Origin: a virus
DNA: 44,102 bases
UHGV virus genome: UHGV-0016039
Strand: one strand, 5' to 3'
The notes beneath the pieces were generated by a model. The model saw only the letters and a program-made list of their open reading frames with translations. It made no database searches and was not told the DNA's origin. Position 1 is the stretch's first letter, and every line of letters begins with the position of its first letter. The position numbers and the translations under genes are program-made. This document shows, piece after piece, positions 1 through 43,946 of this stretch.

Positions 1-20
1 TTTTTTTTTGAAATTAGTTG

Positions 21-50
21 TTGACACCCATCCTGCAACCAATCTATCAT
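21..50 (+). promoter_or_regulatory. sigma70-like promoter (TTGACA-18bp-TATCAT); spacer contains TGCAACCAAT motif
   Basis: TTGACA at 21-26, TATCAT at 45-50, 18 bp spacer; upstream T9 run at 1-9. Confidence 0.5.
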
Positions 51-246
51 TCACTCCGTCGACAGGATGCAGGACGCAAACTGGAGAGGGGCAACGCAGG
101 GGCCGGATCGAAGTGTAAGGATTCCCAACCGTGATTATATAACCAGGTCCACTACCCGAACGGGGGAACGCGTAACCTGGCAATATGTTAAGGCCACCGA
201 CGAAGTTAACTGCCGACACCTAAACTTAACCAATCGGAGATATACC

Positions 247-765
247 ATGTTTGAGCAAATCGTAAACCTGATCACTCGCGGCGTAGTAGCACTGGAAACC
301 ATCGCTAAACATTATGAAACCGTCGGCGCTGCCGTTGGTAAGCAGGAAGACAAGAAGCCGTCTAAGTCCAAAAAAGAAGTTGTCGAAGATGACGACGATG
401 ACGCCGAAGACGAAAAACCGGCTAAATCTAAAAAAGCGCCTGCGAAGGGCAAGGCTAAGAAGGAAGTCGTAGAAGATGACGACGATGAAGAAGCCGAAGA
501 CGAAAAACCGGCTAAGTCTAAAAAAGCCCCGGCTAAAGGCAAAGGCAAGAAAGATGCCGATCCGCTGGCGGAGATGCGCGACGAGATCAAACAGTATGCC
601 GCGATTATTGCCGGTGGTGACGACGACGATGCGAACGACGAATTCGACGACCTGCTGGAATCGTTCGAGATCAAATCAATCGCCAAGCTGGAAGATGACG
701 ACGTCGAAGACTTCCACAAAGAGCTAAAAGAAATCGTCGAAACCTATTTCGAACTGGAAGATTAA
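247..765 (+). CDS. acidic, lysine-rich repeat protein (D/E tracts alternating with PAKSKKAPAKGK repeats); candidate early protein
   Basis: ORF track 67..765; ATG at 247 preceded by GGAGA at 236-240 (6 nt spacing); ATG at 67 has no SD; terminator immediately downstream. Confidence 0.55.
   Translation: MFEQIVNLITRGVVALETIAKHYETVGAAVGKQEDKKPSKSKKEVVEDDDDDAEDEKPAKSKKAPAKGKAKKEVVEDDDDEEAEDEKPAKSKKAPAKGKGKKDADPLAEMRDEIKQYAAIIAGGDDDDANDEFDDLLESFEIKSIAKLEDDDVEDFHKELKEIVETYFELED
343..556 (+). repeat. in-frame tandem repeat (~87-90 bp unit, 2 full copies plus a partial) encoding EDDDD-AEDEKPAKSKKAPAKGK
   Basis: near-identical DNA units starting at ~386 and ~473. Confidence 0.7.
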
Positions 766-771
766 TATTAT

Positions 772-800
772 CCGGCCCGCTAATCTGCGGGCCTATTTTT
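772..800 (+). terminator. rho-independent terminator
   Basis: GC stem ccggcccgc/gcgggcc followed by tattttt. Confidence 0.65.
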
Positions 801-813
801 AGAGGACGAGACA

Positions 814-1065
814 ATGGCACGCTTCACGCTAATCGAGGCGGTGGACTCCCGCGACCAGCGCCCATATTATTGGCTATTCGAACGCATCGGCAACTTTCAG
901 TCGCGAGTTGCCGTAATAGATAAACGCCGCAACACACCCGCGCAAATCAAGCGCACCACCTTTACTAATCCCGACTTTTATCTTTGGGCTGATTCCAATC
1001 TGGAATATGTTCGCTTTGCAGTTGCATCCGAAGCAAGAACAATCGACCGCTGGGAGACGAAATAA
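814..1065 (+). CDS. hypothetical protein (83 aa)
   Basis: ORF track; ATG 814 preceded by AGAGGA; TAATG overlap with next gene. Confidence 0.55.
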   Translation: MARFTLIEAVDSRDQRPYYWLFERIGNFQSRVAVIDKRRNTPAQIKRTTFTNPDFYLWADSNLEYVRFAVASEARTIDRWETK

Positions 1066-1247
1066 TGAAATTCTTCGTGCTGGCAACATGCCATAAGACA
1101 AACGACCATTTCTCTTTTCTTGTTATTAACAAGGACGCCTCTATGTGCTGGGTCGATGCGCAGCATGAAGTGCACCGCCGCGTCGAACAGGCGGGAATGG
1201 CTAATATCTGTAAATATGTAATTGTCCAGTTTACAAGGGTGGAATAA
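1065..1247 (+). CDS. hypothetical protein (60 aa)
   Basis: ORF track; TAATG overlaps at both ends (1063-1067, 1245-1249) suggest translational coupling. Confidence 0.45.
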   Translation: MKFFVLATCHKTNDHFSFLVINKDASMCWVDAQHEVHRRVEQAGMANICKYVIVQFTRVE

Positions 1248-2677
1248 TGGCTATTAAACCAAAGCGCAAAACACAATCAGGAAGCAATACAGAACACTCA
1301 TTACTCGGGCCATCGGGATCTAAAAAATGGATGGGGTGTCCCGCCGCCCTGGTGGTCGAAAAAGATATCCCGAACGAATCCGGGCAAGCTGCGATTAACG
1401 GTACGTGTATGCACACTGTATCGGAGGTCGTGCTAAACCGTATTATTGCCGGTGAGAAGCTGATAACCGCGAAGACGTACAAAGGGTGCTACGTCGAGAA
1501 CGAGGGTAAGGGACCAGTAAAGGCCCACCCGAAAGCACCAAAAGGCGGCGTACTGGTCAACGACGATATGGTGAAACAGTGCGATGCGTACATCGACCAC
1601 TGGCGACCACTCCTCGAGGTGGCGGAGTTTGTTCAGCTTGAGATGCGCGCCGATCTGACCCGCGTCCTTCACTCAGGCTACGAGATCGACGGCAACAGGA
1701 TTAAAACGTTCGGTACTGCCGATATGGTCATGGTCATGAAAAAGACCGATGGGACGTACATGCTGATTGTTGGCGACCTGAAGACCGGGCGGCATAAGGT
1801 CGAGGCGAAAGAGAACAAACAGCTTATGTTGTACGCGATCGGACTGCTGCGCAAGCTGCAAACTATGTACGACATTACGACCGTTCGCCTGGTTATCTTC
1901 CAGCCGTATTGCGGCGGGGCGTCGGAGTGGGATATTTCGGTAGAAGCGCTGGAGATATTCGCGAAGTTTGCATCCAAGCGCGCTATTGCCGCACTGGAGG
2001 CGTATTCCCGAGGCAAGAAGGGACTTACCCGTGCCGACTTCCGTCCCAGCGTTGATGCGTGCCAGTGGTGCCGATTTGCGGATCAGTGTAGTGCCCGCGC
2101 TAAGGCCGCAATCGACACGATGACACCTCCAACGGCAACCGACGAAGACCTGGGCGACGACGTGAGCGTGGCGACCGAGGAAGAATGCGCCAATCACGAC
2201 CGCAATATGGTCCGCGAAGCCCGAAAGGCGGCCCGACGTGCGAAGCGTGGCAAGAAAGAAGCTGCCCCCGGCGCTATGAGCGCTGCGGAACTGCGCAAGG
2301 CTTATGAAGGCCTGGACGCAATGCGCCAGCACATCAAAGCTATCGAGTCCGCGGTATTCAAAGCGGTAATGGCGGGCGATGGCGAATCGCTGGGCCTTAA
2401 GATGGTTGCCGGTAAGGAAGGGATCCGTAAGTGGGCGGACGAGAGCGAAGTTATTGAAATCTTCACGAAGGCCCGGATCAAGCGCGATGTGATGTACAAA
2501 GAAACATTGCTCAGCCCTACGGATGCCGAGAAGGTATTGAAGGACGAGAAGCCGAAAGTGTGGGCGAAGCTGTGTGATAAAATCACGCGCGCACCGGCTA
2601 AACCTGTATTAGCACCCATTGACGACCCGCGTCCTGCGTGGTCCGAAGCTACCGACGAGGACTTAAGTAATGAATAA
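1247..2677 (+). CDS. PD-(D/E)XK nuclease, DUF2800/Cas4-like, with C-terminal Cys cluster
   Basis: N-terminal LLGPSGSKKWMGCPAAL, D..K core (IVGDLKTG), CQWCRF..C cluster; position upstream of SSB-like and PolA genes. Confidence 0.75.
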   Translation: MAIKPKRKTQSGSNTEHSLLGPSGSKKWMGCPAALVVEKDIPNESGQAAINGTCMHTVSEVVLNRIIAGEKLITAKTYKGCYVENEGKGPVKAHPKAPKGGVLVNDDMVKQCDAYIDHWRPLLEVAEFVQLEMRADLTRVLHSGYEIDGNRIKTFGTADMVMVMKKTDGTYMLIVGDLKTGRHKVEAKENKQLMLYAIGLLRKLQTMYDITTVRLVIFQPYCGGASEWDISVEALEIFAKFASKRAIAALEAYSRGKKGLTRADFRPSVDACQWCRFADQCSARAKAAIDTMTPPTATDEDLGDDVSVATEEECANHDRNMVREARKAARRAKRGKKEAAPGAMSAAELRKAYEGLDAMRQHIKAIESAVFKAVMAGDGESLGLKMVAGKEGIRKWADESEVIEIFTKARIKRDVMYKETLLSPTDAEKVLKDEKPKVWAKLCDKITRAPAKPVLAPIDDPRPAWSEATDEDLSNE

Positions 2678-2912
2678 AGTATTCGCAATCTTATTGATGT
2701 TTTTGCTCGGCGCGCTGGGCTTTATCCTGCAGTGCGTGCAAGGCGTGTTAATGGTGGCATGGATGATTCGTCATCCAACCAAATGGCTGGATGACGGTTA
2801 TAGCGAAGTTGCCGTCGATTGGGTGGGGAAGAACATCAACCGCCCGCCGTTAAGCTGGATCGAGAACGCTACCAACTACGTGACCAGAAATCTTTTTAAT
2901 GAAAATGCTTGA
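2670..2912 (+). CDS. small membrane protein (80 aa)
   Basis: ORF track; hydrophobic N-terminus AILLMFLLGALGFIL; overlaps stop of upstream gene. Confidence 0.45.
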   Translation: MNKVFAILLMFLLGALGFILQCVQGVLMVAWMIRHPTKWLDDGYSEVAVDWVGKNINRPPLSWIENATNYVTRNLFNENA

Positions 2913-3002
2913 CCGCTTAGGCGCAACCAAGTAGATTAGCAACCAAGCCGAACGGGGTGGCTTCCAATAACCCCGATACATGTGAAAATGAGGAATTGGA
3001 AA

Positions 3003-3791
3003 ATGGCTAAAGTCAACCTGAAAAATGTGCGCGTATGTTTCCTGAAAATTTGGGAACGTGATACCCCTAAACAGGATGGACAAAAACCGGCATACCGCGC
3101 CGTGATTCTTCTTGATAAAGAAGACCCGCAGGTGGACAAAGTGGAGGCGGCAGCGCGCGCAGTGCTCACCGACAAGCTGAAATCCGAGAAGAATGCCGAT
3201 AAGTGGATGGACCGCCACTACGCCCAGGATTCTAAGGAATGTGCAGTTCGCGACGGCGACGAGCGCGATGAAGTAACCGAAGAGTTCGAAGGCATGTTGT
3301 ACATCAACGCCAAATCGTTCAAACAGCCTAACATCCAAACGTCACTGGGCGAGAAGCAGACCGAGCAAGGTCTGACCGTAGACGGCGACGAGATCGAAGG
3401 CCAGGAGATCTACTCCGGTTGTTATTGCAATGTGTCCCTGGATATTTGGGCGTGGAACAATACCAACGGCAAGGGGCTCGGGGCCGGCTTGCTGGGTCTG
3501 CGATTCCGTGAAGACGGCGAAGCCTTCGGGGGTGGCGGGTCTTCATGTTCTGACGAAGACCTGGACAACGATGACGAAGACGAAAGCCCGCGTAAGTCCA
3601 AAAAGTCAAAACGTCGTGATGACGATGACGAAGACGACAAGCCGCGTAAGTCCAAAAAATCCAAGCGCAGCGATGACGATGACGACGACGACGAAGACGA
3701 AAAGCCTCGCAAACGTCGTAAACCACGCGATGACGAAGATGAGGACGACGAAGACGAAGACGAAGCACCACGCAAACGTCGCCGCCGTTAA
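3003..3791 (+). CDS. DUF2815-type phage ssDNA-binding-like protein with C-terminal D/E-rich and PRKSKK repeat tail
   Basis: ATG 3003 preceded by GAGGAA; N-terminal MAKVNLKNVRV..F motif; gene order DUF2800-DUF2815-PolA. Confidence 0.7.
   Translation: MAKVNLKNVRVCFLKIWERDTPKQDGQKPAYRAVILLDKEDPQVDKVEAAARAVLTDKLKSEKNADKWMDRHYAQDSKECAVRDGDERDEVTEEFEGMLYINAKSFKQPNIQTSLGEKQTEQGLTVDGDEIEGQEIYSGCYCNVSLDIWAWNNTNGKGLGAGLLGLRFREDGEAFGGGGSSCSDEDLDNDDEDESPRKSKKSKRRDDDDEDDKPRKSKKSKRSDDDDDDDEDEKPRKRRKPRDDEDEDDEDEDEAPRKRRRR
3556..3788 (+). repeat. in-frame charged tandem repeats (DDDDEDD-KPRKSKKSKR units) at C-terminus of SSB-like protein
   Basis: repeated gacga(t/c)ga.. and ccgcgtaagtccaaaaa units visible in DNA. 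Confidence 0.65.
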
Positions 3792-3809
3792 GGGCAAAGC
3801 CCACTATTC

Positions 3810-3834
3810 AAGCCCGCTTAATGCGGGCTTTTTA
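3810..3834 (+). terminator. rho-independent terminator
   Basis: stem aagcccgc/gcgggctt followed by ttt. Confidence 0.65.
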
Positions 3835-3849
3835 ATAGGACAATGAAAA

Positions 3850-4020
3850 ATGCGTATTAAAGCCAGCGAAGTAAAAGTCGGAATGCAAGTATGGTCCAAA
3901 TTGCTGGGCGAGTATTTCACCGTTGCCGAGATTCGCAACAACGGCGAGGAGATCACCCTTTCCGACGGTATCTCCTCCATGATCGGCAGCGCTGACGCCG
4001 TAGTGAGGATAAAGCAATGA
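3850..4020 (+). CDS. small hypothetical protein (56 aa), stop overlaps PolA start (ATGA)
   Basis: ATG 3850 to TGA 4018-4020 read by hand; below the ORF-track length cutoff. Confidence 0.35.
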   Translation: MRIKASEVKVGMQVWSKLLGEYFTVAEIRNNGEEITLSDGISSMIGSADAVVRIKQ

Positions 4021-6308
4021 AAGACTTCGAACGCCTATTTCTCGACACAGAGACATTCAGCGATGTGGACCTGAAGAAAGTCGGCGCTTACGCCTACGCA
4101 GAACACCCGTCAACCGAGATTATGATTTGCACCTACGCCATCGACGAGGGCCGCGTGCAGACATGGGACGCCACTGAATCCCCCACGATGCCGCGTGAAC
4201 TACGCAAGGCGCTCCGCCATGTAACCCGCAAAAAAGCAAAAATAGTGATGGCGAACGGCCTCCTGTTTGACCGCCTGGTTATCCGTGAAAAGTGGGGCAT
4301 TGACCTGCCGGTAAGCCAGATCGAAGATACCATGATTATGGCCTTCCGACATGCGCTGCCGGGTGGCCTTGATATGCAATGCCAGGTGCTGGGCGTGGAC
4401 GCAGAGCACGCGAAGGATAAGGCGGGCAAGGCGCTGATTAAACGATTCTGTAAGCCTACCCCTAAGACCTACAAAATCCGCCGCTACACGCGCGAGACTC
4501 ACCCGGAAGAATGGGCTAAATTCCTGCGCTATGCCGCGCTGGATACTATCGCAATGCGTGAAGTCTACTGGCGCATACCGGACTGGGGCAACTCCCCGAA
4601 GGAAGACGAAATCCTGCTTATCGACCAGTTGATTAACGACCGCGGTTTCTATGTGGACGTTGACCTAGCTAACGCCGCGATCAAGGCGGTGCAGGTGCAT
4701 AAAGAAGAATTGAAGGAAGAAGCCTGGGAGCGTTTTGGCGGTAAGCTAACCGGCAACGACTTCCTGCCAATCCTGCGTGATATCGCCCCTGCGTTCACTA
4801 TTCACAACGCGCAGAAATCAACGCTGAATGACTTGCTGGAAGACCCAGACTTCCCCGACGAGGGCAAGGTGCTCATTGAGATGCGCCTCGGTGCGTCATC
4901 AACGGCATCGACTAAGTACAATCCGCTCGTCAATGGCCTGTCCGCCGATGGTCGCCGCCGTGGTTGTCTTCAGTATGGTGGGGCAAAGCGCACGCTACGC
5001 TGGGCCGGTAAAGGCTTTCAACCTCAAAACCTGGCGCGTGGCGAGTACAGCGACGACCACGAAGGGAAGATTAAACGCCGCGAGGGTGAAAGCGACGTCT
5101 CGTTTTGGGTCCGGTCGCACATGCTCACCAACGGCATCAACTCCCTGTTACGCGGGACCGCACACTGGGCGTATGACATATCGAAGCTAACGGCATCGAC
5201 CGTTCGCGGGTGCATTATTCCTGCGAAGGGTAAGAAGTTTGTCGTAGCGGACTACTCCAACGTGGAAGGGCGTGGCCTTGCCTGGATCGCTGGCGAGAAA
5301 ACAGCGCTCATGGTGTTTAAGGCCGGTCGCGATATCTATTGTGAGACTGCCGGTAAGATGTTCGGCCTGGACCCGGACTACATTAAAGCCAACCGCAAGG
5401 ACTTACGCCAGATCGGTAAGGCGTGCGAATTGGGACTGGGCTATGGTGGCGGCGTCGCGGCGTTCTTGCAGTTCGCTAAAAACCTGGGCCTCGACCTTTA
5501 CACTATGGCGGACGTGATGAAAGGCACGTTCCCGGATCACATTTGGGCGGCGGCGAAACGTGGTTATGAGTACGCTCGCATTAACGAAGCGAAGCGCCCG
5601 CCGAAGCCGGGCAAGAAGGACGAGCGCCCAACATACATACTGCCGAAAAACGTATGGCTTACTTGTGACGCAATCAAACGTATGTGGCGTGAGGCTCACC
5701 CGAAGACGGTAGCCTTTTGGGCCGAGCTTGAGGACGCTGTGTTGTGTGCAATCCGCAATCCGGGCAAAGCATACTGGGCTGGCGCGAACGTTCGCCCGGA
5801 CGGTAGAAAAGCGCTCAAGATTGTCCGTACGAAGGCGAAGCACGACCCAACCTTTGACGAGGAGCGCGACGACCCGAACGCCGCGGGGTGGTGGTTGAAA
5901 ATTGAGTTGCCGTCGGGGCGCATCATGAGCTACCCCGGCATCGCGCTGTCTGTCACGACCGAGATTGACGAAGACACCGGCAAGAAGCGCACCAGCACAC
6001 GCATTAAATATCAGGGCGAGAATCAGACGACGCGCCAGTGGGGATTCCAGTATACCTACGGCGGCAAACTGACGGAGAACATCGTACAGGCGTTGTGCCG
6101 CGATATTCTCGCATGGTCCATGCCTGGCGTTGAAGCTGCGGGGTATAAAATCGTCCTGTCGGTGCATGATGAATTGATCACAGAAGTGCCGGACACCGAC
6201 GACTACACTACCGAGGAACTTTGCGCGCTGATGTGCGACCTGCCTATTTGGGCGAAGGGCTTCCCACTTGCCGCCGAAGGCGACATCATGTACAGGTACA
6301 GGAAGTAA
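4017..6308 (+). CDS. DNA polymerase, family A, with 3'-5' exonuclease domain
   Basis: N-terminal LFLDTETFS exo motif; RQIGKACELGLGYGGG (motif B K...YG); VHDELITEV (motif C). Confidence 0.92.
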   Translation: MKDFERLFLDTETFSDVDLKKVGAYAYAEHPSTEIMICTYAIDEGRVQTWDATESPTMPRELRKALRHVTRKKAKIVMANGLLFDRLVIREKWGIDLPVSQIEDTMIMAFRHALPGGLDMQCQVLGVDAEHAKDKAGKALIKRFCKPTPKTYKIRRYTRETHPEEWAKFLRYAALDTIAMREVYWRIPDWGNSPKEDEILLIDQLINDRGFYVDVDLANAAIKAVQVHKEELKEEAWERFGGKLTGNDFLPILRDIAPAFTIHNAQKSTLNDLLEDPDFPDEGKVLIEMRLGASSTASTKYNPLVNGLSADGRRRGCLQYGGAKRTLRWAGKGFQPQNLARGEYSDDHEGKIKRREGESDVSFWVRSHMLTNGINSLLRGTAHWAYDISKLTASTVRGCIIPAKGKKFVVADYSNVEGRGLAWIAGEKTALMVFKAGRDIYCETAGKMFGLDPDYIKANRKDLRQIGKACELGLGYGGGVAAFLQFAKNLGLDLYTMADVMKGTFPDHIWAAAKRGYEYARINEAKRPPKPGKKDERPTYILPKNVWLTCDAIKRMWREAHPKTVAFWAELEDAVLCAIRNPGKAYWAGANVRPDGRKALKIVRTKAKHDPTFDEERDDPNAAGWWLKIELPSGRIMSYPGIALSVTTEIDEDTGKKRTSTRIKYQGENQTTRQWGFQYTYGGKLTENIVQALCRDILAWSMPGVEAAGYKIVLSVHDELITEVPDTDDYTTEELCALMCDLPIWAKGFPLAAEGDIMYRYRK

Positions 6309-6586
6309 TGACACCAGAAGGCAAGATTCAAAGTCACCTGATGAAACGGGTGAAAGAGGTCGGCGGATTCTGCCGCAAACTGGCATGGGAGGGACGCGCA
6401 GGTGCGCCCGACCTGATTATCATAATCAACGGCATCATAGTATTCGTCGAAGTGAAGCGCCCCGGAGGAAAACCGAAGCCACACCAGGTACGTGAGCATG
6501 AGCGAATGGTCCGCCGCGGTGCTGACGTTCGCGTCATCGACAACATATCCGACTGCGATTTATTGGTTGCTGAATTGGTCGCATAG
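6308..6586 (+). CDS. VRR-NUC domain nuclease
   Basis: ATG 6308 overlaps PolA stop (TAATG); GAPDLIII..VFVEVKRPGGKPKPHQ motif. Confidence 0.7.
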   Translation: MTPEGKIQSHLMKRVKEVGGFCRKLAWEGRAGAPDLIIIINGIIVFVEVKRPGGKPKPHQVREHERMVRRGADVRVIDNISDCDLLVAELVA

Positions 6587-6626
6587 CGGTATAGTGTGCC
6601 GGTTAGCCATATCGAGGATTTTAGAG

Positions 6627-6800
6627 ATGATTGAAGAAAAACGTTGTAGTAATTGCGGCTGTGTAAAGCCGCTATCCCAGTTCCACAAATACACCGGTAA
6701 GACTGCGCGCAGTCCAGACGGGTATCGGGCAGAGTGCAAATCGTGCCGCAATAAGAAAGAGCGCGAACGGCAGCGCCGCTACCGTGCAGAACAAAAATAA
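6627..6800 (+). CDS. small zinc-ribbon protein (CxxC...CxxC), basic C-terminus
   Basis: ATG 6627 preceded by GAGG; CSNCGC ... CKSCRNKK. Confidence 0.5.
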   Translation: MIEEKRCSNCGCVKPLSQFHKYTGKTARSPDGYRAECKSCRNKKERERQRRYRAEQK

Positions 6801-6807
6801 TTAATAC

Positions 6808-6830
6808 GGCGGGCTTGTCCCGCCCTTTTT
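6808..6830 (+). terminator. rho-independent terminator
   Basis: stem ggcggg/cccgcc followed by ttttt. Confidence 0.65.
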
Positions 6831-6843
6831 GGGAGACATGACG

Positions 6844-7062
6844 ATGAAAGAACATTACCGACTCACCAAGCTGGGCGAATGTAAACCGGGCGATCGCGTA
6901 TGGTTTATCGCGGGCATGAATGATCCGCTGCCGTTGACGGTGTGCTGGCAAAAATTTAAGAGCTTCCGGGCTACCGGTGTGCACATCGGACACGCCACCA
7001 ACTACGACGCTACAAAAAGGAACTGGAACAGTGAGACTGAAGTCTGGAAAAAGGCGGAATAA
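6844..7062 (+). CDS. hypothetical protein (72 aa)
   Basis: ORF track starts at TTG 6829; ATG 6844 is 8 nt after GGGAG. Confidence 0.5.
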   Translation: MKEHYRLTKLGECKPGDRVWFIAGMNDPLPLTVCWQKFKSFRATGVHIGHATNYDATKRNWNSETEVWKKAE

Positions 7063-7066
7063 CGAC

Positions 7067-8491
7067 ATGGCAAGATTCCGACGCCGCGAATATCAGAAGT
7101 TGATAACCGCGTTCATCCTCAAGCATAAGCGATGTAATATCTGGGCGACAATGGGATCCGGTAAAACCGGCGCGACAATGTGGGCGCTGAATAAAATGTT
7201 CCAGACTGGCGTCCTGTCCCATCATGAGGACCGCGTACTGGTGCTGGCCCCGCTGCGTGTTGCGTCGGGTACATGGCCCCCGGAACAGGAGAAATGGCGG
7301 TTCTCATCCCTGCTGGTCGTAGACGGCACCGGACCGGAGAAGGACCGTATTGCCGCGCTTGAGAGCGACGCTAACGTGGTTTGTGTTAACTACGATGTGG
7401 TTGAGTGGCTGGTCGACTATTACGGCGATGCGTGGCCCTTTACGGTCGTTGTTGCCGATGAATCGACTAAGCTGAAAGGCTATCGAAGCAAGCAGGGGAG
7501 CAAGCGCGCCCGCGCACTGGCAGCGATTGCACATAAACACGTCAAGCGCTGGATTAACCTTACCGGCACACCCGCACCCAACGGGCTGAAAGACTTATGG
7601 GGTCAGACGTGGTTTGTCGACGGTGGCGAACGCCTCGGCAGTAGCTATAAGGCATTTACCGACCGCTGGTTTATTAGCAAGCCTGTTAAGCCTGGCAGCT
7701 TCACTATGCAGCACGCCCCGCTCAAGAACTCCGAGAAGGAGATCCAACAACGCCTGTCTGACGTATCCCTTACCGTTGACGCGGCTGAATACTTCGGATG
7801 TGACAAGCCAATCTATACTCCGGTTGTTGTGGACCTGCCGAAGAAAGCCCGCAAGATTTATGACCAGTTCGAAGCGGAGCTATTTGCCGAACTGGAAAGC
7901 GGAACGGTGGAGGCGGCGAACGCGGCTTCGAAGACTATTAAGTGCCTTCAGCTTGCTTCCGGGGCCGTGTATAAAGTCGACGAAGACGGCGAGCGCACCG
8001 ACGAATGGGTGAAAATCCACGACGCTAAACTGGACGCGCTGGAAAGTATCGTGGAGGAGTTGAACGGCGCACCGTTGCTCGTCGCGTACCAGTACAAGCA
8101 TGACCTGGCGCGTCTCAAGAAGAAATTCCCGCACGGCGTAGCGATGGGTAAGGGTAAGCAAGGCAATAAGGACATGGAAGCGTGGAACAGGGGCGAGATC
8201 CCCATCATGTTCGCACACCCGGCATCGGCGGGTCACGGCCTTAACTTGCAGGATGGCGGACACCACCTTGCCATCTTCTCCGACACCTGGAACTATGAGC
8301 ATTTTTCGCAGATTGTGGAGCGTATCGGGCCGGTTCGCCAGATGCAAGCCGGACACCCTCGTCCGGTATTCGTCTACATTATCCAGGCGCGCGGAACACT
8401 GGACGAACTGGTCGCCGAGCGTCGCGACAGTAAGCGAGATATACAGGACGACTTGATGGAATACATGAAAGCTAAAAAGGCGCGCAAATGA
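7067..8491 (+). CDS. SNF2-family (DEAD/DEAH-box) helicase
   Basis: ATG 7067; Walker A ATMGSGKTG, VVADESTKLKG, LTGTPAPNGLKDLW. Confidence 0.88.
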   Translation: MARFRRREYQKLITAFILKHKRCNIWATMGSGKTGATMWALNKMFQTGVLSHHEDRVLVLAPLRVASGTWPPEQEKWRFSSLLVVDGTGPEKDRIAALESDANVVCVNYDVVEWLVDYYGDAWPFTVVVADESTKLKGYRSKQGSKRARALAAIAHKHVKRWINLTGTPAPNGLKDLWGQTWFVDGGERLGSSYKAFTDRWFISKPVKPGSFTMQHAPLKNSEKEIQQRLSDVSLTVDAAEYFGCDKPIYTPVVVDLPKKARKIYDQFEAELFAELESGTVEAANAASKTIKCLQLASGAVYKVDEDGERTDEWVKIHDAKLDALESIVEELNGAPLLVAYQYKHDLARLKKKFPHGVAMGKGKQGNKDMEAWNRGEIPIMFAHPASAGHGLNLQDGGHHLAIFSDTWNYEHFSQIVERIGPVRQMQAGHPRPVFVYIIQARGTLDELVAERRDSKRDIQDDLMEYMKAKKARK

Positions 8492-9183
8492 TTATCTGGT
8501 CATTATTTGACGGCAGCGGATTGATGATCGAGCGTGCTGCCGAGATGGGGCATAAGTGTTATTGCTTCAACTACTCCGAAGCCGATCACGGGTCTTACCT
8601 GGACTACCGGATCTATGGTCGCGGTATCCGATATCGTAATGAGTTTATCGATCTGGACTTTGTAGACCGCGCGATGAATGGCGATTTCGGTACGCCAGAT
8701 ATCATCTACGCATTCCCGCCGTGTACTGATCTGGCGGTGAGCGGTGCGCCAGCTTTCCCGCGCAAACGCGCCCGCGACCCGGCCTTCCAGCTTAAGGCGG
8801 TGCGCACCGCGAAGATCGCAGCTTACCTGGGTGACTTCTTCGAAGTGCCATATATGATTGAGAATCCGCGCAGTGTGCTTTCCACCCAGTGGCGTAAGCC
8901 GGACCACTCGTTTGATCCGTGGGAGTATGGGGGATATCTGCCGGAGGATGACGTACACCCGCTCTTCCCTGAATACATCAACGCCCGCGATTCATATCCG
9001 AAGCTGACCTGCTTATGGGCCGGCAACGGCTTCCGTATGCCGGAGAAGAAACCTGTTTTCGTTGAAAAAGGGTACTCGAAACAGTATAGTCGCCTCGGTG
9101 GTAAATCCGCTCGTACAAAATTAATCCGGTCGCTCACTCCGCGCGGCTTCGCGATAGCGGTTAACGAGGAAAATTTAAAATGA
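8488..9183 (+). CDS. minimal C5-cytosine methyltransferase-like protein (motif I/IV/VI-like, no obvious target-recognition domain)
   Basis: SLFDGSG (FxGxG-like), FPPCTDLAVSG (PC motif), MIENPRS (ENV-like); ATGA overlap with helicase stop. Confidence 0.45.
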   Translation: MIIWSLFDGSGLMIERAAEMGHKCYCFNYSEADHGSYLDYRIYGRGIRYRNEFIDLDFVDRAMNGDFGTPDIIYAFPPCTDLAVSGAPAFPRKRARDPAFQLKAVRTAKIAAYLGDFFEVPYMIENPRSVLSTQWRKPDHSFDPWEYGGYLPEDDVHPLFPEYINARDSYPKLTCLWAGNGFRMPEKKPVFVEKGYSKQYSRLGGKSARTKLIRSLTPRGFAIAVNEENLK

Positions 9184-9503
9184 ATACTACATTCGACGCC
9201 ATCGACTTTTCAGTGGCAATGACCAATCAGCTTTTTTCCTACGACAGTAAGACCGGCGTCATCCGCCTGAAGTCCACCGGACGCAAAATTGGCAACCTTA
9301 ACACTGCCGATGGCGGAACACGTATCGAATGCAACGGCAAGACGCTGTCCGGCGCACGCGTGGCGTGGATTATTGAGACGGGCAATACAATCCCTCCAGG
9401 CTTCGCCGTTGTGTGCCGCCAGCGCACTCCAGGGCACTACGGCAACCGCATGAGCAACCTGTATCTGGTAGACGTTGCGCGCGACCCAAATTTTTATTCG
9501 TAA
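9180..9503 (+). CDS. HNH_3-like domain protein, catalytic motif apparently degenerate
   Basis: ARVAWIIETGNTIPPGFAV..GHYGNRMSNLYLV resembles HNH_3 pattern but lacks a clear DH..N core; ATGA overlap at 9180. Confidence 0.4.
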   Translation: MNTTFDAIDFSVAMTNQLFSYDSKTGVIRLKSTGRKIGNLNTADGGTRIECNGKTLSGARVAWIIETGNTIPPGFAVVCRQRTPGHYGNRMSNLYLVDVARDPNFYS

Positions 9504-9507
9504 ATTG

Positions 9508-9536
9508 GTTGCACAACCATATTGGTTGCATTATAT
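9508..9536 (+). promoter_or_regulatory. sigma70-like promoter TTGCAC-17bp-TATATT with ATTGGTTGCA elements
   Basis: TTGCAC 9508-9513, TATATT 9531-9536; TTGGTTGCA at 9505 and 9521. Confidence 0.5.
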
Positions 9537-9539
9537 TGA

Positions 9540-9565
9540 GGGTGTCCGGTTTGGACGCCCTTTTT
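9540..9565 (+). terminator. hairpin plus T5 run (terminator for upstream operon or attenuator in 5' leader of gene at 9585)
   Basis: gggtgtccgg ttt ggacgccc followed by ttttt, starting about at the predicted TSS. Confidence 0.45.
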
Positions 9566-9584
9566 AATACCTGGAGACAGTGAT

Positions 9585-9827
9585 ATGAAATCATTATTTT
9601 TCGACTACGACGGCGACCTTCGATTTTGGGTGCTCCTCACCCTCATGATTGCCGGCTGTATTGGCATACCTTCGACGGCTATTTACTACACGGAACGCTA
9701 CGAATGCAAGACCGTGTATGCCGAGCAAACCGGACGCAATACCCAATGGCGCTATGGTGTCTGCTGGGTGGAGATGAACGGTAAATTTATCCCACGCAAT
9801 GAAATCCGCACCACGGAGATTAAATAA
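9585..9827 (+). CDS. small membrane protein (80 aa, one TM helix)
   Basis: ATG 9585 preceded by GGAG; FWVLLTLMIAGCIGIPSTAIYY. Confidence 0.5.
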   Translation: MKSLFFDYDGDLRFWVLLTLMIAGCIGIPSTAIYYTERYECKTVYAEQTGRNTQWRYGVCWVEMNGKFIPRNEIRTTEIK

Positions 9828-10286
9828 GTGAAAATTTTACAAGAAGAGAAAAATTACGGGGCCGCGCAATGCCTCGAAGCCCGCGAACAGGCCGAACGCG
9901 CGAACGCGCTGGCGGACACCTACCTGGCGAGCTATGAAGGCGAGGAGAAGGCGCGCAAGGAATTAGAGGAGCGCTTCGATCTGCTGTATGAGTTGATGGG
10001 TATTATGCAGCGCACCGGATACACCACCACCGTCGCGCTAAACCGCATCACTGCCGAAGGTCTGCGCGAGCATTGCAAACGTGCCGAGGCGTACGTGCGC
10101 CCCAAAGGTCACCAGTCTAAGATCGACCGGAAAGACCTGGTGCTTATGGCGTGGCGCGCAAACGGTAGCTACTACTCCGATTGCCGACCGCTTAGCGTCG
10201 AGGGGGGAAAGCGCCTGCAACGCGTTCTAAACAGTGGTAAGAAAATTGCCCTGTACGCGATAGATCAAGACCATGCAGAAGAGTGA
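9828..10286 (+). CDS. hypothetical protein (152 aa), helical/coiled-coil N-terminus
   Basis: ORF track; GTG start directly after upstream stop. Confidence 0.4.
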   Translation: MKILQEEKNYGAAQCLEAREQAERANALADTYLASYEGEEKARKELEERFDLLYELMGIMQRTGYTTTVALNRITAEGLREHCKRAEAYVRPKGHQSKIDRKDLVLMAWRANGSYYSDCRPLSVEGGKRLQRVLNSGKKIALYAIDQDHAEE

Positions 10287-10758
10287 GCAGAAAGATAGCT
10301 GGCGCACACCGCCAGCTTTATTTAAACCGCTGCGCCGTAAGTTCCGATTCCGTTACGATATGGCGGCAAGCGACGCCAATCATCTGCTACCGCGTTACTT
10401 CACGGCAGAGCACAGCGCGCTTGATGTGGACTGGGCAGAGTTGAAAGGGTGGAAATGGTGCAATCCGCCGTATTCCGATCCGCTGCCGTGGGTGGAATGC
10501 GCAGCGCACGGACGGCGGACTGTCATGCTACTGAATCAGGACACGTCGACTAAGTGGGCGAAGTTGGCCCGGAAGACTGCAAACCTGATAATTCTTCTGG
10601 ACTGGCGGATTAGATTCATTCACGCCGTCACCGGCGAAGTCGGTCCGAGCAATAACAAGTGCCAGCAATTGATAATCTTTGACGAAGCGCCACCCCTCGG
10701 CAGCGCACAAATTGAAATAATGAGCGAAGGAGAACTCCTTGAATATCTTAATCGTTGA
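10273..10758 (+). CDS. dam: DNA N6-adenine methyltransferase (phage Dam-type)
   Basis: WRTPPALF N-terminus and NPPY catalytic motif (WCNPPYSDP). Confidence 0.8.
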   Translation: MQKSEQKDSWRTPPALFKPLRRKFRFRYDMAASDANHLLPRYFTAEHSALDVDWAELKGWKWCNPPYSDPLPWVECAAHGRRTVMLLNQDTSTKWAKLARKTANLIILLDWRIRFIHAVTGEVGPSNNKCQQLIIFDEAPPLGSAQIEIMSEGELLEYLNR

Positions 10759-10963
10759 CCGCGACCCTGCGGTCGTAGACCGAATGCAAAAAGACTACGG
10801 CATTGACCCGCGGCGCAATCATGTGGTGCGCGCATCTCATCCCGGACGCATCATGGGCCTTGACCTCAACGGTTGGCTTGTCATGACTCAGCGTTGCCAT
10901 TTCGTATGCAACTCCTTTACTGCGCGAAGCGCCCGACAGACACTTATTGAGAGCTTAAAATGA
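10739..10963 (+). CDS. hypothetical protein (74 aa)
   Basis: TTG start at 10739, 6 nt after AAGGAG; ATGA overlap with next gene. Confidence 0.4.
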   Translation: MNILIVDRDPAVVDRMQKDYGIDPRRNHVVRASHPGRIMGLDLNGWLVMTQRCHFVCNSFTARSARQTLIESLK

Positions 10964-11430
10964 AATTACTGATTTGCGATTTGGATGGCGTTATTAATGG
11001 TTCAAGCGATGCGCGTGCCGACCTGGTTCCGGGCATAAAAACAAAATCCACCTTCTGGGCGAAGTGGCACAAAGCGCACGTCCGCGAAGACCTGAACATG
11101 GATATGCTGCCGCTGTTGCGCATGTACAAAGAGCAAGGCTTCGAGATCGCGTATCTGACAAACCGGCAGCTAGAATGTTGGGACACCACCGCCGAGCAAT
11201 TGGAGGTCTTCCCGGTAGGCAGGTTATTCATGCGCCACATGCTGGACGACACCCCGCCGCCAGAGTTTAAAGCGTGCGCTGTGTTCAAAATGGTCTGCTA
11301 TGCGGACGTATCGGAACTGGTCATCATTGAAGACTGTCCGAAGAACATCGCGGCAATTCGTCGGGCGTGCAGCGATTTAATCCCGAAAATTTACGCAATA
11401 AACGTTGCAAAATTTACTTGCAACCAATAG
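10960..11430 (+). CDS. HAD-superfamily phosphatase-like protein (possible nucleotidase)
   Basis: motif I LICDLDGVI, motif II AYLTNR, acidic motif IIEDC. Confidence 0.6.
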   Translation: MKLLICDLDGVINGSSDARADLVPGIKTKSTFWAKWHKAHVREDLNMDMLPLLRMYKEQGFEIAYLTNRQLECWDTTAEQLEVFPVGRLFMRHMLDDTPPPEFKACAVFKMVCYADVSELVIIEDCPKNIAAIRRACSDLIPKIYAINVAKFTCNQ

Positions 11431-11441
11431 GTTGGTTGCAG
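11418..11441 (+). promoter_or_regulatory. perfect 10-bp inverted repeat TTGCAACCAA-tagg-TTGGTTGCAg (candidate operator/promoter element)
   Basis: palindrome read directly from sequence, 50 bp upstream of ATG 11493. Confidence 0.45.
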
Positions 11442-11492
11442 TATCTTAATCACGTCGGGGGCAATACCGCCTCCACTAAAAAGGAAAACATC

Positions 11493-12014
11493 ATGAAAGC
11501 ATACGAATACTGCAAAAACGCCGCTACCACTATGGAACAGCGCGGGAAAGAAAACGGCTATGACAACGCGAAAGAAGAACGCAGCGCTAAACAGATCGCC
11601 GCCGTGTTTAACGCGCTTACCGGGCGCGACCTTACCGAGCAAGAAGCCTGGACCTTCCTGATCTGTCTGAAGCTGGTGCGCCAGAACCGTAAGCACCAGG
11701 AAGATAACATCGTGGATCTGGTGGCGTATGCCGCCCTGCTGGGCGAGTCTTACATGACCGTGCATGACGAGATTCAGATCGACACAACGGCAGCGCAATA
11801 CGGCAGCCTAAAAGGTTGGCCCATCGCCACCGCAGGGACGTGGCATCCTTCGTCATCGGTGGGTAAGACTGTCAATGCCGAAATTAGCGGTATTGCGGGT
11901 CAAGAATTCCAGCCTATGGTCGTGCTCACCGGCGAAGACGGATCGAAAATCTGCATGACGCAGGAAGATTTCCGTATCATGGAAAAAACACTGGTGACTA
12001 GTGCACTTAAATAA
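11493..12014 (+). CDS. hypothetical protein (173 aa)
   Basis: ATG 11493 preceded by AAGGAA; ORF track frame 11367..12014. Confidence 0.55.
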   Translation: MKAYEYCKNAATTMEQRGKENGYDNAKEERSAKQIAAVFNALTGRDLTEQEAWTFLICLKLVRQNRKHQEDNIVDLVAYAALLGESYMTVHDEIQIDTTAAQYGSLKGWPIATAGTWHPSSSVGKTVNAEISGIAGQEFQPMVVLTGEDGSKICMTQEDFRIMEKTLVTSALK

Positions 12015-12054
12015 TTTAATCGCGGGCTTCGGCCCGCATCAATGAGGACTCATA

Positions 12055-12630
12055 ATGTACGGCGAATATGAAATAACCGGTAAACAATTCCACCTGGCGG
12101 CAATGATAGCAAGCATCGAGTTTGACCAGTGGCGGTATAAGTCCGACGCGTGCAAGCAAAGCAGACTCGTCGGTGTGCTGGGCGAAATGTTTGCAGGCAT
12201 GTACCTCGAAGGGCAGGCGGGCGGGCGTAGCTGTATCCCGCAAGGTTTGCTAATGCGTACCGGCCTGTTTAGCGCTAACACTATCGACCGCGGCGATATT
12301 ATCATGGTCGGTAAGCGCAAGGTTAAGTCCGGTCCCGACTTCCGGGAACACATGATTGATGCCGTATGGACCTACGAGGTAAAAGCCGCCAGCGGCATCC
12401 GTCGCGGACTTGTCGAGGCACGTTGCGCTCGCGAATATCTATCACGTCGCGTTGCCGGTGTTATCCTGGTGGGGGTGTCGTTAGGGCCGCAAAGCGCGCA
12501 CGGCGTGATTGAGGATATTGCGGAACCGTACGTGATTGTGAACGACTGGCCCTTAGTGGAAGTGGAAGGAAAGGAATATTACGAAAGCCAGCTGGTGCGG
12601 CGCAAAATGGACTGGGAAAACTCAAACTAA
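12055..12630 (+). CDS. hypothetical protein (191 aa)
   Basis: ATG 12055 preceded by GAGGA. Confidence 0.55.
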   Translation: MYGEYEITGKQFHLAAMIASIEFDQWRYKSDACKQSRLVGVLGEMFAGMYLEGQAGGRSCIPQGLLMRTGLFSANTIDRGDIIMVGKRKVKSGPDFREHMIDAVWTYEVKAASGIRRGLVEARCAREYLSRRVAGVILVGVSLGPQSAHGVIEDIAEPYVIVNDWPLVEVEGKEYYESQLVRRKMDWENSN

Positions 12631-12652
12631 AAAGGGGCCGTATGGCCCCTTA
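12629..12652. terminator. bidirectional terminator at convergence of + early block and - tail fiber gene
   Basis: aaaa-aggggcc-gtat-ggcccct; T-run on the - strand side. Confidence 0.6.
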
Positions 12653-14416: not shown

Positions 14417-14437
14417 AGCTAAATCCTCTTAAATTGG

Positions 14438-14466
14438 TTGCATTCTTGATCGAGCGGTGTAATACT
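14438..14466 (+). promoter_or_regulatory. promoter TTGCAT-17bp-AATACT with ATTGGTTGCA element, driving + strand lipoprotein operon
   Basis: TTGGTTGCA at 14434; -35/-10 spacing 17. Confidence 0.45.
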
Positions 14467-30484: not shown

Positions 30485-30513
30485 TTGCAATCCTCGTATT
30501 GGTTGCATATATT
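30485..30513 (+). promoter_or_regulatory. sigma70-like promoter TTGCAA-17bp-TATATT with two TTGGTTGCA elements
   Basis: TTGCAA 30485-30490, TATATT 30508-30513; TTGGTTGCA at 30499 and 30513. Confidence 0.5.
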
Positions 30514-30542
30514 GGTTGCACACCAACAACGAGGACACCCAA

Positions 30543-31307
30543 ATGAGACTGACTAAAGTCATTAAAAATCAGATTCTGGCTAACATCCTGCGCGACCACG
30601 AAATAGCGACCAAAGCCAAACTAATAATGATGGACTCGCGTGACTTGGCTTATGCCGTTACGATGGACTGTATGCCGGAAGGCATTCGCACGTTCGCAGC
30701 GCTCCGCGAGCATATCAAGACATTCAGCGGCGACCAGTCGCCGATGTACGGCGTCAGCGTCTACACCAACAAGGCAACATATAGATATGACTCAGGCCTC
30801 CCTAAAGGTATAGGCAGCGTTTATGACGCCACTTTCGAAATAAACGCAGGCGGTAATGTTCGTACCCTATCATTGAGTGGTGACGGTCGGAGATTCCGCC
30901 AACACCGCGGATACTGGGAGGACAAGTATATGAATAAGCTCGCACCGGATCTTAGCGATATTGTTCCTGGGTTTGAAGAAGTTTTGCTGGCGTCAGTGTG
31001 CGAAGTGGACGAGGACGGGAAAGCGTTGCCGATATATCTTCCACGCGGTCGCGCAGATTACCCGGCGGACCATGATTTTTGTAAGCGCCTGGACTGTAAC
31101 GATAAGGCCCGCCGGGAGTTGCGTGCTAAGTATGACGCGTTCAAGTTGACCGTTACCGGTGTGCTGGACCTGCACAATACTGACAAGAAGCTGATTAAGG
31201 CATGGCCTGAAGTTGAGCAATTCATCCCTTACCCGGACAAGCCAAAATCCACGGCGGTGGCGCTGGATGTGAAAACTCTCAACGAGATTTGCGGTATTCC
31301 GCGCTAA
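30543..31307 (+). CDS. hypothetical protein (254 aa) encoded opposite to the flanking head genes (moron-like)
   Basis: ATG 30543 preceded by GAGGA; own promoter upstream and terminator downstream. Confidence 0.6.
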   Translation: MRLTKVIKNQILANILRDHEIATKAKLIMMDSRDLAYAVTMDCMPEGIRTFAALREHIKTFSGDQSPMYGVSVYTNKATYRYDSGLPKGIGSVYDATFEINAGGNVRTLSLSGDGRRFRQHRGYWEDKYMNKLAPDLSDIVPGFEEVLLASVCEVDEDGKALPIYLPRGRADYPADHDFCKRLDCNDKARRELRAKYDAFKLTVTGVLDLHNTDKKLIKAWPEVEQFIPYPDKPKSTAVALDVKTLNEICGIPR

Positions 31308-40141: not shown

Positions 40142-40281
40142 TGCTCAGTCTCCTCAATCTCATCGGCAGTTTTCGTGTCGGCATCGCATACCGTAGCGAT
40201 GCCGTCAATCTCATAATCTGCTAAGCAGGCATCAACAGAAATAAACTTCTGCGAGAATCCTGCCATTAGTGCTGGTGTCAT
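40138..40281 (-). CDS. small acidic hypothetical protein (47 aa)
   Basis: ATGA overlaps at both ends; GGAG upstream. Confidence 0.4.
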   Translation of the reverse strand: MTPALMAGFSQKFISVDACLADYEIDGIATVCDADTKTADEIEETEQ

Positions 40282-40547
40282 TTGCTCAGTCTCCAGTGTT
40301 TGCCTACCCGCTCAACGGCGGGCTTCCGGCGTAATGTAATACGTATTCCCATTGGTTGCAAGGAAGTCCGCACCCTGAAATCGTGTTGTGCTGCGAACTG
40401 GTGCAAGTAGCGAGTCTGCGTCAGTGGCTTTACATCATCGCGATAGCTCCAGTACACAGAATCGCCTTCAGTCGCATTCTTAGCCCATATTCGTATGCAG
40501 TGAAGGGGAATACGCCATGAAAGCTGTTTAGCGCGCCTACGGCTCAT
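40278..40547 (-). CDS. hypothetical basic protein (89 aa)
   Basis: ORF track; ATG 40547 with AAGGG. Confidence 0.5.
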   Translation of the reverse strand: MSRRRAKQLSWRIPLHCIRIWAKNATEGDSVYWSYRDDVKPLTQTRYLHQFAAQHDFRVRTSLQPMGIRITLRRKPAVERVGKHWRLSK

Positions 40548-40861: not shown

Positions 40862-40889
40862 CGTTCAGTCCTCATATTGGTGTGCAACC

Positions 40890-40918
40890 AATATAGCCAG
40901 GTGCCAGGCTGAATGCAA
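40890..40918 (-). promoter_or_regulatory. sigma70-like promoter TTGCAT-17bp-TATATT (- strand) with overlapping palindrome ATTGGT-gtgc-AACCAAT
   Basis: rc of 40913-40918 is TTGCAT, rc of 40890-40895 is TATATT; palindrome 40875-40894. Confidence 0.5.
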
Positions 40919-41077
40919 CCAATATTAATCACGCGTATGAAAAAGTTGATCGCTATCTGCTGAATCTGCAAACCGCATTTTTCACTTTCCATTCTGCAAC
41001 TCGCATTGGTTGCCGAGTTCATCGACGACCGCAATTTGCATCATGTTGCCGTGCGGTATGCAATCCTGGATTTTATG

Positions 41078-41260
41078 CAGTCTCAGACGAGGGGGGTGCC
41101 AGACCCCCCGTCTAGTCTGAAAGACTGGGGTGCCGTCCCGCTGTCCCGCTCCTCTGGAAGCCGCGTCATCCGGGGCGGGACGGGGGTGCTGTCCCGCTTT
41201 GTCCCGCCTCTGGTCTGTCCCGCCTTTTGTCCCGCTTGTTTTATGCAGTAAAATTGCATA
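41078..41260. repeat. composite repeat copy B (hairpin, GTCCCGC iterons, ATGCA-N7-TGCAT palindrome)
   Basis: near-identical to 24618-24800 except for a 35-bp substituted core. Confidence 0.7.
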
Positions 41261-43616: not shown

Positions 43617-43946
43617 TTACTTAAAAGTTTTATTATTGCGTACCCAGGAGCGCACTGTGCTCTGATTAATTCCGGTCAACTCGGCAATCATCGCCCACGA
43701 TTTTCCCTCGTCGCGCAAACGTATAACCTGCTTTTTGTATTCTTCCATTTCTTCATTGTGCTTTTGCAGCTTGCTCGCGGCCGTGCCGTTGAGCAATTCC
43801 AGCCTGGCGCGTAATTCTTTCTCGACACTGCGCAGTCGTTCGATTTCAAATAACACCGCCCCCACGGCATCTGTATAAGCCCATGACCGGCTTGTCTCAC
43901 TGCAAACAGTCTTCGTTAACATTTCGATTGCGCCGTTTACATTCAT
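43617..43946 (-). CDS. HTH DNA-binding protein (109 aa)
   Basis: C-terminal HTH-like WAMIAELTGINQSTVRSWVRNN; ATG 43946 with GAGGG. Confidence 0.55.
   Translation of the reverse strand: MNVNGAIEMLTKTVCSETSRSWAYTDAVGAVLFEIERLRSVEKELRARLELLNGTAASKLQKHNEEMEEYKKQVIRLRDEGKSWAMIAELTGINQSTVRSWVRNNKTFK

Follow-up and report, generated by a model that had tools for sequence, protein, structure and literature searches.

The 44,102-nucleotide stretch analyzed here (UHGV virus genome UHGV-0016039; hereafter the window) is a genome-length Dhillonvirus sequence, of which the 2.4-kb segment 8400–10800 is 91–93% identical to phages BF9, Sponge, and Oekolampad (Bas18). Dhillonviruses are virulent siphoviruses of Escherichia coli with a genome of approximately 44 kb. 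Compared with Oekolampad, the window is a circular permutation whose ends are cut within a terminator. Gene annotation was carried over from Oekolampad via tblastn, by which the replication and DNA-modification (“early”) region was assigned to positions 1–12630 of the plus strand. The intergenic share of this genome is 6.2%, and the element in question is one such gap of 81 bp (9504–9584). It begins directly after the TAA stop codon (9501–9503) of an HNH homing-endonuclease-like gene and ends at the ATG of a gene for a small membrane protein, which is followed in order by genes for a 152-residue protein, a Dam-like methylase, a 74-residue protein, and a phosphatase. A hairpin followed by a T tract, a pair of promoter-like hexamers, two direct copies of the 10-mer ATTGGTTGCA, and a Shine–Dalgarno (SD) sequence are packed into this gap, as listed in Table 1.

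The hairpin at 9540–9560 followed by TTTTT, which had been pointed out in an earlier reading made from the letters of the DNA without database searches (the sequence-only reading), was found exactly as described. It is located 37 nt past the stop codon of the HNH gene on the coding strand, its stem comprises six G–C, one G–T, and one A–T pairs, and it folds as RNA with an energy of −14.4 kcal/mol. The 97-nt region around it is more structured than its shuffled versions (z = −2.7). A strict terminator scan, which demanded a stem of at least 6 bp with at least five G–C pairs and then at least four T, gave 12 sites in the window including 9540–9560, compared with 1.09 ± 1.19 in 100 dinucleotide shuffles, and all 12 were intergenic and located on the coding strand. 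A consensus terminator scan did not list the hairpin; we infer that its greedy stem extension (A9539–T9561 and G9538–T9562, compare the 10-pair fold) consumed two T residues and left fewer than five. The homologous region was also gathered from IMG/VR contigs and GenBank phages, and 15 relatives were aligned. Because a 1-nt insertion or deletion shifts the stem register in the MAFFT alignment, the hairpin variants were folded one by one. Seven sequence variants were obtained across the 15 relatives, among them A–T to G–T changes as well as stems lengthened to 9 bp by one additional base per arm and closed by a GAAG loop, and all of them fold (−11.7 to −16.1 kcal/mol). The homologous hairpin is annotated as a “putative transcriptional terminator” in PTXU06 (MK373789) and WF5505 (NC_073060), with ARNold named in one of them. 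The sequence 9540–9560 with its T5 is thus a conserved intrinsic (Rho-independent) terminator of the ordinary kind, as judged from its structure and conservation, and termination would be its predicted function. It shares with the ARNold-annotated Dhillonvirus terminators a G+C-rich stem of 8–9 bp, a loop of 4–5 nt, and 5–6 U directly after the stem. It differs in that a −10 hexamer ends 2 nt before the stem, whereas those records show no promoter or operator there.

This hexamer belongs to a promoter-like pair, TTGCAC-17-TATATT, which the sequence-only reading had also proposed and which occupies 9509–9537 as it stated; the SD sequence and the ATG follow 36–48 nt downstream. Transcription usually starts 7 nt after the −10 hexamer, preferably at a purine. 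The start is hence predicted at G9544, within the 5′ arm of the hairpin, and relative to this position the terminator spans −4 to +17 and the T tract extends to +22. Folding of the corresponding RNAs showed what such a start would leave of the hairpin. RNA from 9544 retains only the helix GUCC/GGAC (4 bp, −5.4 kcal/mol), which ends 4 nt before the U tract, and RNA from 9545 or later retains essentially none of it. Because the −10 hexamer ends so close to the hairpin, the promoter's own start would fall inside the 5′ arm and its own transcripts would escape termination. The terminator would accordingly discriminate between transcripts by where they began.

The arrangement is strongly constrained among the 15 relatives. 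Invariant blocks are TAA-ATTGGTTGCA, ATTGGTTGCA-T-TAT(A/C)TT, the start of the stem (GGGTG), the end of the stem (CGCCC or TGCCC), and the T tract. Insertions and deletions are seen in the loop and the T tract and never occur within the promoter spacings, which are fixed at 8 nt from copy to copy of the 10-mer, 1 nt from copy 2 to the −10 hexamer, and 2 nt from the −10 hexamer to the stem. The last of these gaps fits a constraint that keeps the start inside the 5′ arm. The 8-nt stretch separating the two copies varies almost freely, with at least seven forms (CAACCATA, TAATCATA, TAATTAGA, TAACCGTA, TAAGCCTA, TTGCAAGA, and GTACGGGA). The footprint is that of hexamers at 9509–9537 kept while their spacer varies, oriented toward the gene. 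Phage HK578 has one mismatch in copy 2 of the 10-mer. A palindrome in the window, TGGTTG-CA-CAACCA, together with the small hairpin at 9514–9528, was examined as a functional element and rejected; it is not conserved in the relatives, and the free variation of the 8 nt shows it to be incidental.

The embedding of the promoter in two exact direct repeats of ATTGGTTGCA had escaped the sequence-only reading. The window holds 10 exact copies of this 10-mer against 0.04 expected, and nearly every one of them falls at a promoter-like site. Its 9-mer core occurs in 11 exact copies, nine of which are located in the 6.2% of the DNA that is intergenic, and degenerate copies mark three further intergenic regions. 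Approximately nine motif-bearing promoter-like sites were recognized in this way, each directed at the adjacent downstream gene (Table 1). Motif sites lie at the same places, with the exact motif, in four complete genomes (Oekolampad, PTXU06, Envy, and HK578). When viral contigs were scanned for motif pairs, essentially only contigs of Dhillonvirus size were retrieved, together with a few chance matches. Searches of the literature with the motif in both orientations found no paper describing this promoter family. The ATTGGTTGCA promoter family, conserved across the genus, is the more informative result of the analysis.

Table 1. Features of the 9504–9584 gap, its flanking genes, and the motif-bearing sites elsewhere in the window.
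Feature	Position	Strand	Remarks
Upstream gene, HNH homing-endonuclease-like	9180..9503	+	Last gene of the helicase / Dcm-like methylase / HNH run
10-mer copy 1, ATTGGTTGCA, putative operator	9504..9513	+	Last five bases form TTGCA of the −35; invariant in 15 relatives
−35-like hexamer TTGCAC	9509..9514	+	3/6 to consensus; TTGCAT in most relatives
10-mer copy 2, ATTGGTTGCA, putative operator	9521..9530	+	Fills the promoter spacer; ends 1 nt before the −10
−10 hexamer TATATT	9532..9537	+	5/6 to consensus; TATCTT in some relatives
Terminator hairpin	9540..9560	+	GGGTGTCC (9540–9547), loop GGTTT, GGACGCCC (9553–9560); 8-bp stem
Predicted transcription start G	9544	+	7 nt after the −10, inside the hairpin 5′ arm; from the usual distance
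Terminator T tract	9561..9565	+	T5; 5–6 T in all 15 relatives
Shine–Dalgarno GGAG	9573..9576	+	8 nt before the ATG at 9585; kept even where the downstream gene differs
Downstream gene, 80-residue membrane protein	9585..9827	+	Presence varies among relatives
Promoter TTGACA(21)-18-TATCAT(50)	21–50	+	10-mer at 34..43 (−), reversed, in the spacer
Promoter TTGACC(2909)-17-TAGATT(2937), upstream of the SSB gene	2909–2937	+	Motif reversed, in the spacer and at +1
Degenerate motif copies TTGGTTGCG, TTGGTTGCT	2922..2946	−	Spacer and +1 of promoter 2909–2937
Promoter, −10 TATAGT (6590–6595)	6567–6595	+	Two degenerate copies 12 bp apart (6562..6583), at −35 and spacer
Promoter, −10 TATCTT (11442–11447)	11418–11447	+	Inverted pair TGCAACCAA-tagg-TTGGTTGCA (11419..11440), ending 1 nt before the −10
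Promoter upstream of a Cor-like lipoprotein gene	~14438–14466	+	Single copy (14433..14442) at −35
Promoter upstream of the Nmad5 gene, −10 TATATT (30508–30513)	30485–30513	+	Two direct copies 13 bp apart (30498..30520), in the spacer and at −10/+1, flanking and overlapping the −10
Promoter, −10 TATATT (40895–40890)	40918–40890	−	Two direct copies 31 bp apart (40883..40923), at −35 and −10/+1
Promoter	~41330–41270	−	Degenerate motif copies
Exact ATTGGTTGCA within the coding sequence 40278–40547 (minus strand)	40351..40360	+	Kept in Oekolampad, PTXU06, and HK578
Candidate binder, 109-residue helix-turn-helix protein	43617..43946	−	Pfam HTH_23 (5e-7), Sigma70_r4_2 (4.8e-6)

The motif is found in either orientation and at any of three positions with respect to the −10 hexamer, and its pairs are spaced by 12, 13, 16, 17, 31, or 35 bp. 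Such varied orientation, position, and spacing indicate that the 10-mer behaves as a protein-binding site and not as a polymerase recognition element. As the motif overlies the −35, the spacer, or the start site, even at the near-consensus promoter 21–50, a repressor-type action is the most economical reading. We hence take ATTGGTTGCA to be the putative operator of a phage-encoded, repressor-type DNA-binding protein that would compete with RNA polymerase. In phage lambda, the repressor sites of OR/PR and OL/PL overlap the −35 and −10 elements. The Dhillonvirus sites resemble them in being repeated short sites placed over core promoters in multiple copies, with a small helix-turn-helix (HTH) gene beside divergent promoters. 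They differ in that the 10-mers are non-dyad, occur singly or in direct or inverted pairs 12–35 bp apart in either orientation, and belong to a virulent phage, and in that binding is putative. In phage T4, the MotA box, a phage-specific element of 9–10 bp, can stand in for a poor −35 where the sigma-70 −10 is good. Its position (approximately −30) and orientation are fixed, whereas the 10-mer is also located in the spacer, over +1, and reversed; a MotA-box middle promoter was ruled out by this variability. Other known sites were likewise compared and rejected. A sigma-54 promoter calls for GG-N10-GC (−24/−12), and here GG and GC lie 2 nt apart in each copy and 14–19 nt apart between paired copies. 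The PdhR/GntR operator, generally given as ATTGGT-N3-ACCAAT, was rejected as most sites contain the left half ATTGGT only. FNR and CytR sites were among the candidates that failed on spacing, orientation, or the conserved TGCA.

The 10-mer itself has no dyad symmetry, and a partial palindrome in copy 1 of the window is not conserved. Only three perfect palindromes of the form TTGGT-N5-ACCAA are present in the window, at 43961–43975, 30512–30526, and 40877–40891; their 5-nt center also speaks against a PdhR/GntR operator. The latter two overlap the second 10-mer copy of two promoters. These palindromes possibly represent a second, dimeric binding mode. A scan of bacterial genomes for the palindromic form gave scattered, unrelated taxa among the matches listed and is uninformative as to a host factor.

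A candidate for the binding protein is the 109-residue product of 43617–43946, which was the only HTH protein among approximately 30 small proteins scanned with Pfam. Its gene is the first of the leftward transcript from a divergent promoter region at the ends of the window, and its own promoter carries the palindrome 43961–43975 at the predicted start site. Homologues are named “transposase”, “resolvase”, “Gam”, or “HTH protein” in GenBank. A single-sequence AlphaFold (AF2) model with a predicted local distance difference test (pLDDT) score of 83 showed a long helix (residues 21–79) and a C-terminal three-helix HTH domain, a coiled-coil type of architecture. Sequence and fold searches against the PDB with this protein gave generic HTH matches only (LuxR/GerE, resolvase, and IstA types). 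The HTH residues RLRxEGxSWxxIAExTGINxSTxRxW are kept in the HK578 homologue, which is 37% identical, and the HK578 genome uses the same motif. Neither the protein nor the motif extends beyond the genus, and the motif shows no variation. On this circumstantial evidence, the 43617–43946 protein is a candidate binder of ATTGGTTGCA.

When these observations are combined, we hold it moderately probable that the gap consists of a terminator for the upstream genes and an overlapping, operator-controlled restart promoter whose own RNA escapes, with the HTH protein as the likeliest candidate binder. The hairpin and T5 would halt transcription that enters from the helicase, Dcm-like methylase, and HNH genes upstream, at approximately 9562–9567, and termination would probably be partial because only five U are present. 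TTGCAC-17-TATATT would act as a host sigma-70 promoter that restarts transcription of the next block, which begins with the membrane-protein gene, includes hyp33 and the Dam-like methylase, and ends with the phosphatase. Its transcripts would begin at about G9544 in the 5′ arm, keep the 4-bp remnant, and read through into the gene at 9585. The terminator would insulate the downstream block, the expression of which would be left to a promoter with two operators. A binder of ATTGGTTGCA at the −35 and the spacer, the likeliest candidate being the 43617–43946 protein, would compete there with RNA polymerase.

The sequence-only reading had offered two alternatives for the locus, namely a terminator of the upstream operon that overlaps the next promoter, and a leader attenuator that controls the gene at 9585. 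The first is favored here, on the grounds of the hairpin conserved in its variants, the terminator set of the window, the annotation in relatives, and the motif-promoter family. The second is not supported: the predicted start lies in the stem, and no antiterminator was found. The region upstream of the hairpin has no conserved alternative pairing, its sole hairpin (CAACCA/TGGTTG, 9514–9528) being absent from the relatives, and no start codon for a leader peptide was read in the 41-nt leader. Rfam gave no match for the whole window at the gathering score or for 9350–9750 at E ≤ 1. Furthermore, the membrane-protein gene is dispensable: about half of the relatives lack it but keep the intergenic region. 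Only 78 of the 158 related records cover the query including this gene, and among the remaining records listed, most align as two segments that leave out the 243-bp gene. In relatives without it, the same region and SD sequence are followed directly by the next gene (MKILQEE…) or, in HK578, by the Dam methylase gene. The same control region hence precedes three different genes across the genus, encoding the membrane protein, a hyp33 homologue, and the Dam methylase. An attenuator dedicated to one gene does not agree with a region that is kept before different genes. As for the junction itself, the next gene starts with GTG at 9828 and abuts the TAA of the membrane-protein gene, which is inserted precisely between the conserved SD sequence and the start of this next gene.

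Several points weigh against the favored reading of a terminator with an escaping, repressor-controlled promoter. The hexamer match alone is at chance level: a consensus promoter scan scored the site 9/12 (in another register), and 12 such sites occur in 12 kb against 8.9 ± 3.0 in shuffled sequences, with the −35 matching poorly (3/6). The distinction between a repressor and an activator or antiterminator was judged from the site positions alone, and the HTH protein is tied to the motif only by being the sole HTH protein found. Searches of the literature on promoters, terminators, and transcriptomes of Dhillonvirus and HK578 found no 5′ or 3′ RNA ends or phage transcript data. The start site is the main uncertainty, as a weaker −10 element, CATTAT (9529–9534), overlaps TATATT and would give a start at approximately G9541, from which a 7-bp hairpin of −11.7 kcal/mol might still terminate. 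Finally, the other early promoters reach a terminator after one gene, and the zero-gene spacing at 9509–9565 could mean deliberate damping instead of escape.

The last two points lead to a different picture, which we regard as unlikely, in which the promoter is attenuated by its own hairpin. If transcription started at 9540–9542, for example from CATTAT, a near-complete hairpin would form at the 5′ end of the RNA; the promoter would then be constitutively damped, with most RNAs ending after approximately 20 nt, or the main role of the hairpin would be to stabilize the 5′ end of the mRNA. RNA starting at 9542 still folds at −8.4 kcal/mol, and leader hairpins also occur downstream of two other motif promoters (−11.4 kcal/mol from +1 for the −10 at 11442, and −9.9 for that at 2932). 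The arrangement in one 44-kb relative (IMG/VR contig L013) is similar, and the single-gene distance from the other early promoters to their terminators also fits. These other leader hairpins, however, lack a U tract. TATATT with its 17-nt spacer makes the better hexamer pair and predicts G9544, whereas TATATT would be no more than 3–4 nt away from a start at 9541 or earlier. It would also seem wasteful to build a strong operator-controlled promoter only for termination. The site in L013 (4359–4446) carries two direct 9-mer copies 17 bp apart, as at 9504–9530, and is followed by a longer leader hairpin without a U tract. By the shared sequence TATCTTAATC, it appears equivalent to 11419–11447 of the window, where an inverted pair is present.

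The weakness of the hexamers would also suit a terminator that works without any promoter. The hexamers would then be inactive, the 10-mers would be protein-binding sites with another role, for example as a roadblock, in genome organization, or in read-through control, and the downstream genes would be expressed by leakage. This is compatible with the chance-level promoter match, with the reliance of other early gene blocks that have no promoter of their own on terminator read-through, and with the presence of one exact 10-mer within a gene, away from any promoter. It leaves unexplained why a TA---T hexamer is fixed 1 nt from copy 2, both here and at the homologous site type 11432, why every motif site with a −10 is directed at a downstream gene, and why the sequence between the copies varies freely in the manner of a promoter spacer. 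We accordingly consider a terminator without promoter quite unlikely.

An overlapping restart promoter also has to be viewed in the layout of the early region, where plus-strand terminators are located at 774–793, 3812–3828, 6808–6824, and 9540–9560, and a terminator-like hairpin at approximately 12632–12651 closes the region. PTXU06 annotates the first four at homologous places. Promoter 21–50 is followed by one gene for an acidic 232-residue protein, a terminator, and promoter-less genes; promoter 2909–2937 by the SSB gene, a terminator, and the polymerase block; and promoter 6567–6595 by a 57-residue Lar-like gene, a terminator, and the helicase, Dcm, and HNH genes. At 9509–9565, the promoter and terminator overlap with no gene between them, and the next block follows. 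This site is therefore one node in a regular promoter/terminator pattern, distinguished by zero genes in between, and the promoter-less genes past the early terminators must depend on read-through. The early layout of lambda is likewise promoter, one gene, terminator, and distal genes (PL-N-tL1 and PR-cro-tR1), and four early units here share it with one gene or none before the terminator. Read-through in lambda is due to N acting at RNA nut sites, and no search aimed at a nut-like element or an N-like protein was made here.

This layout also speaks for a further alternative, promoter-loaded antitermination after the logic of lambda Q and AlpA, in which the 10-mer would load a phage factor that confers terminator resistance. 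Transcription would stop at the terminator after no or one gene without the factor, and the distal genes would be expressed with it. The DNA element recognized by Pseudomonas AlpA and by Q is situated between the −35 and −10, and both factors allow a downstream intrinsic terminator to be bypassed; AlpA reads its element through a C-terminal HTH (PMC9371919). Copy 2 of the 10-mer occupies exactly this place in its promoter (−22 to −14 with respect to G9544). The series of promoter, no or one gene, terminator, and promoter-less genes recurs in the early region, with four instances, and PTXU06 shares it. The likeness to lambda Q, 21Q, 82Q, and AlpA thus consists of a protein-binding element between the −35 and −10 and a downstream intrinsic terminator. 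The differences are that the terminator here begins before +1, that position and orientation of the element are not fixed (reversed in the spacer, at the −35, or over +1), which fits poorly with fixed loading, and that no sequence or fold similarity was detected. No −10-like pause element was read in 9544–9560, and a terminator at +17 to +22 leaves no space for a sigma-dependent pause. No Q-like or AlpA-like Pfam family was found among the approximately 30 small proteins, and the fold search with the HTH protein was generic only. Antitermination of this type is hence improbable at this locus. The same low probability applies to its extended form, in which the ATTGGTTGCA sites would load a small HTH antiterminator that converts RNAs covering the first gene alone into transcripts of the whole operon, and 9504–9565 would be an extreme case that stays silent until the factor is made; if true, the antiterminator family would be a new one, carried by a virulent siphovirus and differing from Q in its flexible site geometry.

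The favored reading, an insulating terminator with a restart promoter under putative operators, describes an ordinary kind of phage control region and leaves general principles unchanged. Its interest lies in the phages concerned, as Dhillonviruses are common E. coli phages that are used in the BASEL collection, in studies of defense systems, and as therapy candidates, and literature searches found no description of their transcription program. The terminator was already known from its annotation in relatives. If the reading is true, it provides a map of approximately nine regulated promoter-like sites and of the terminators that partition the early region, together with a testable operator sequence and a candidate regulator. 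It would also define a compact natural part in which the terminator blocks incoming RNA and the RNA of the overlapping promoter escapes by starting in the stem. Such a part could be useful for phage engineering, the choice of gene-insertion sites, and insulator design.

Some minor features of the window and its relatives were also observed. The terminator that is cut by the window ends (44078–44102 and 1–9) reads GCGCCG…CGGCGC followed by T9, and it is located 11 nt upstream of the strongest promoter, that at 21–50. The Nmad5-domain gene (30543–31307; Pfam 4e-56) lies antisense within the structural-gene operon and has its own promoter with two putative operators. In PTXU06, two tandem copies of a gene pair, methylase-like and small gp31-like, occupy 31986–34059 upstream of the homologous region. 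Lastly, an iteron cluster was found at 41123–41237, in a gap beside the helicase-primase gene; the cluster overlaps an open reading frame annotated in relatives. It contains TGTCCCGC(T/C)T five times, together with an imperfect repeat of 35 nt (41123–41157 and 41179–41213), and it is probably the replication origin.

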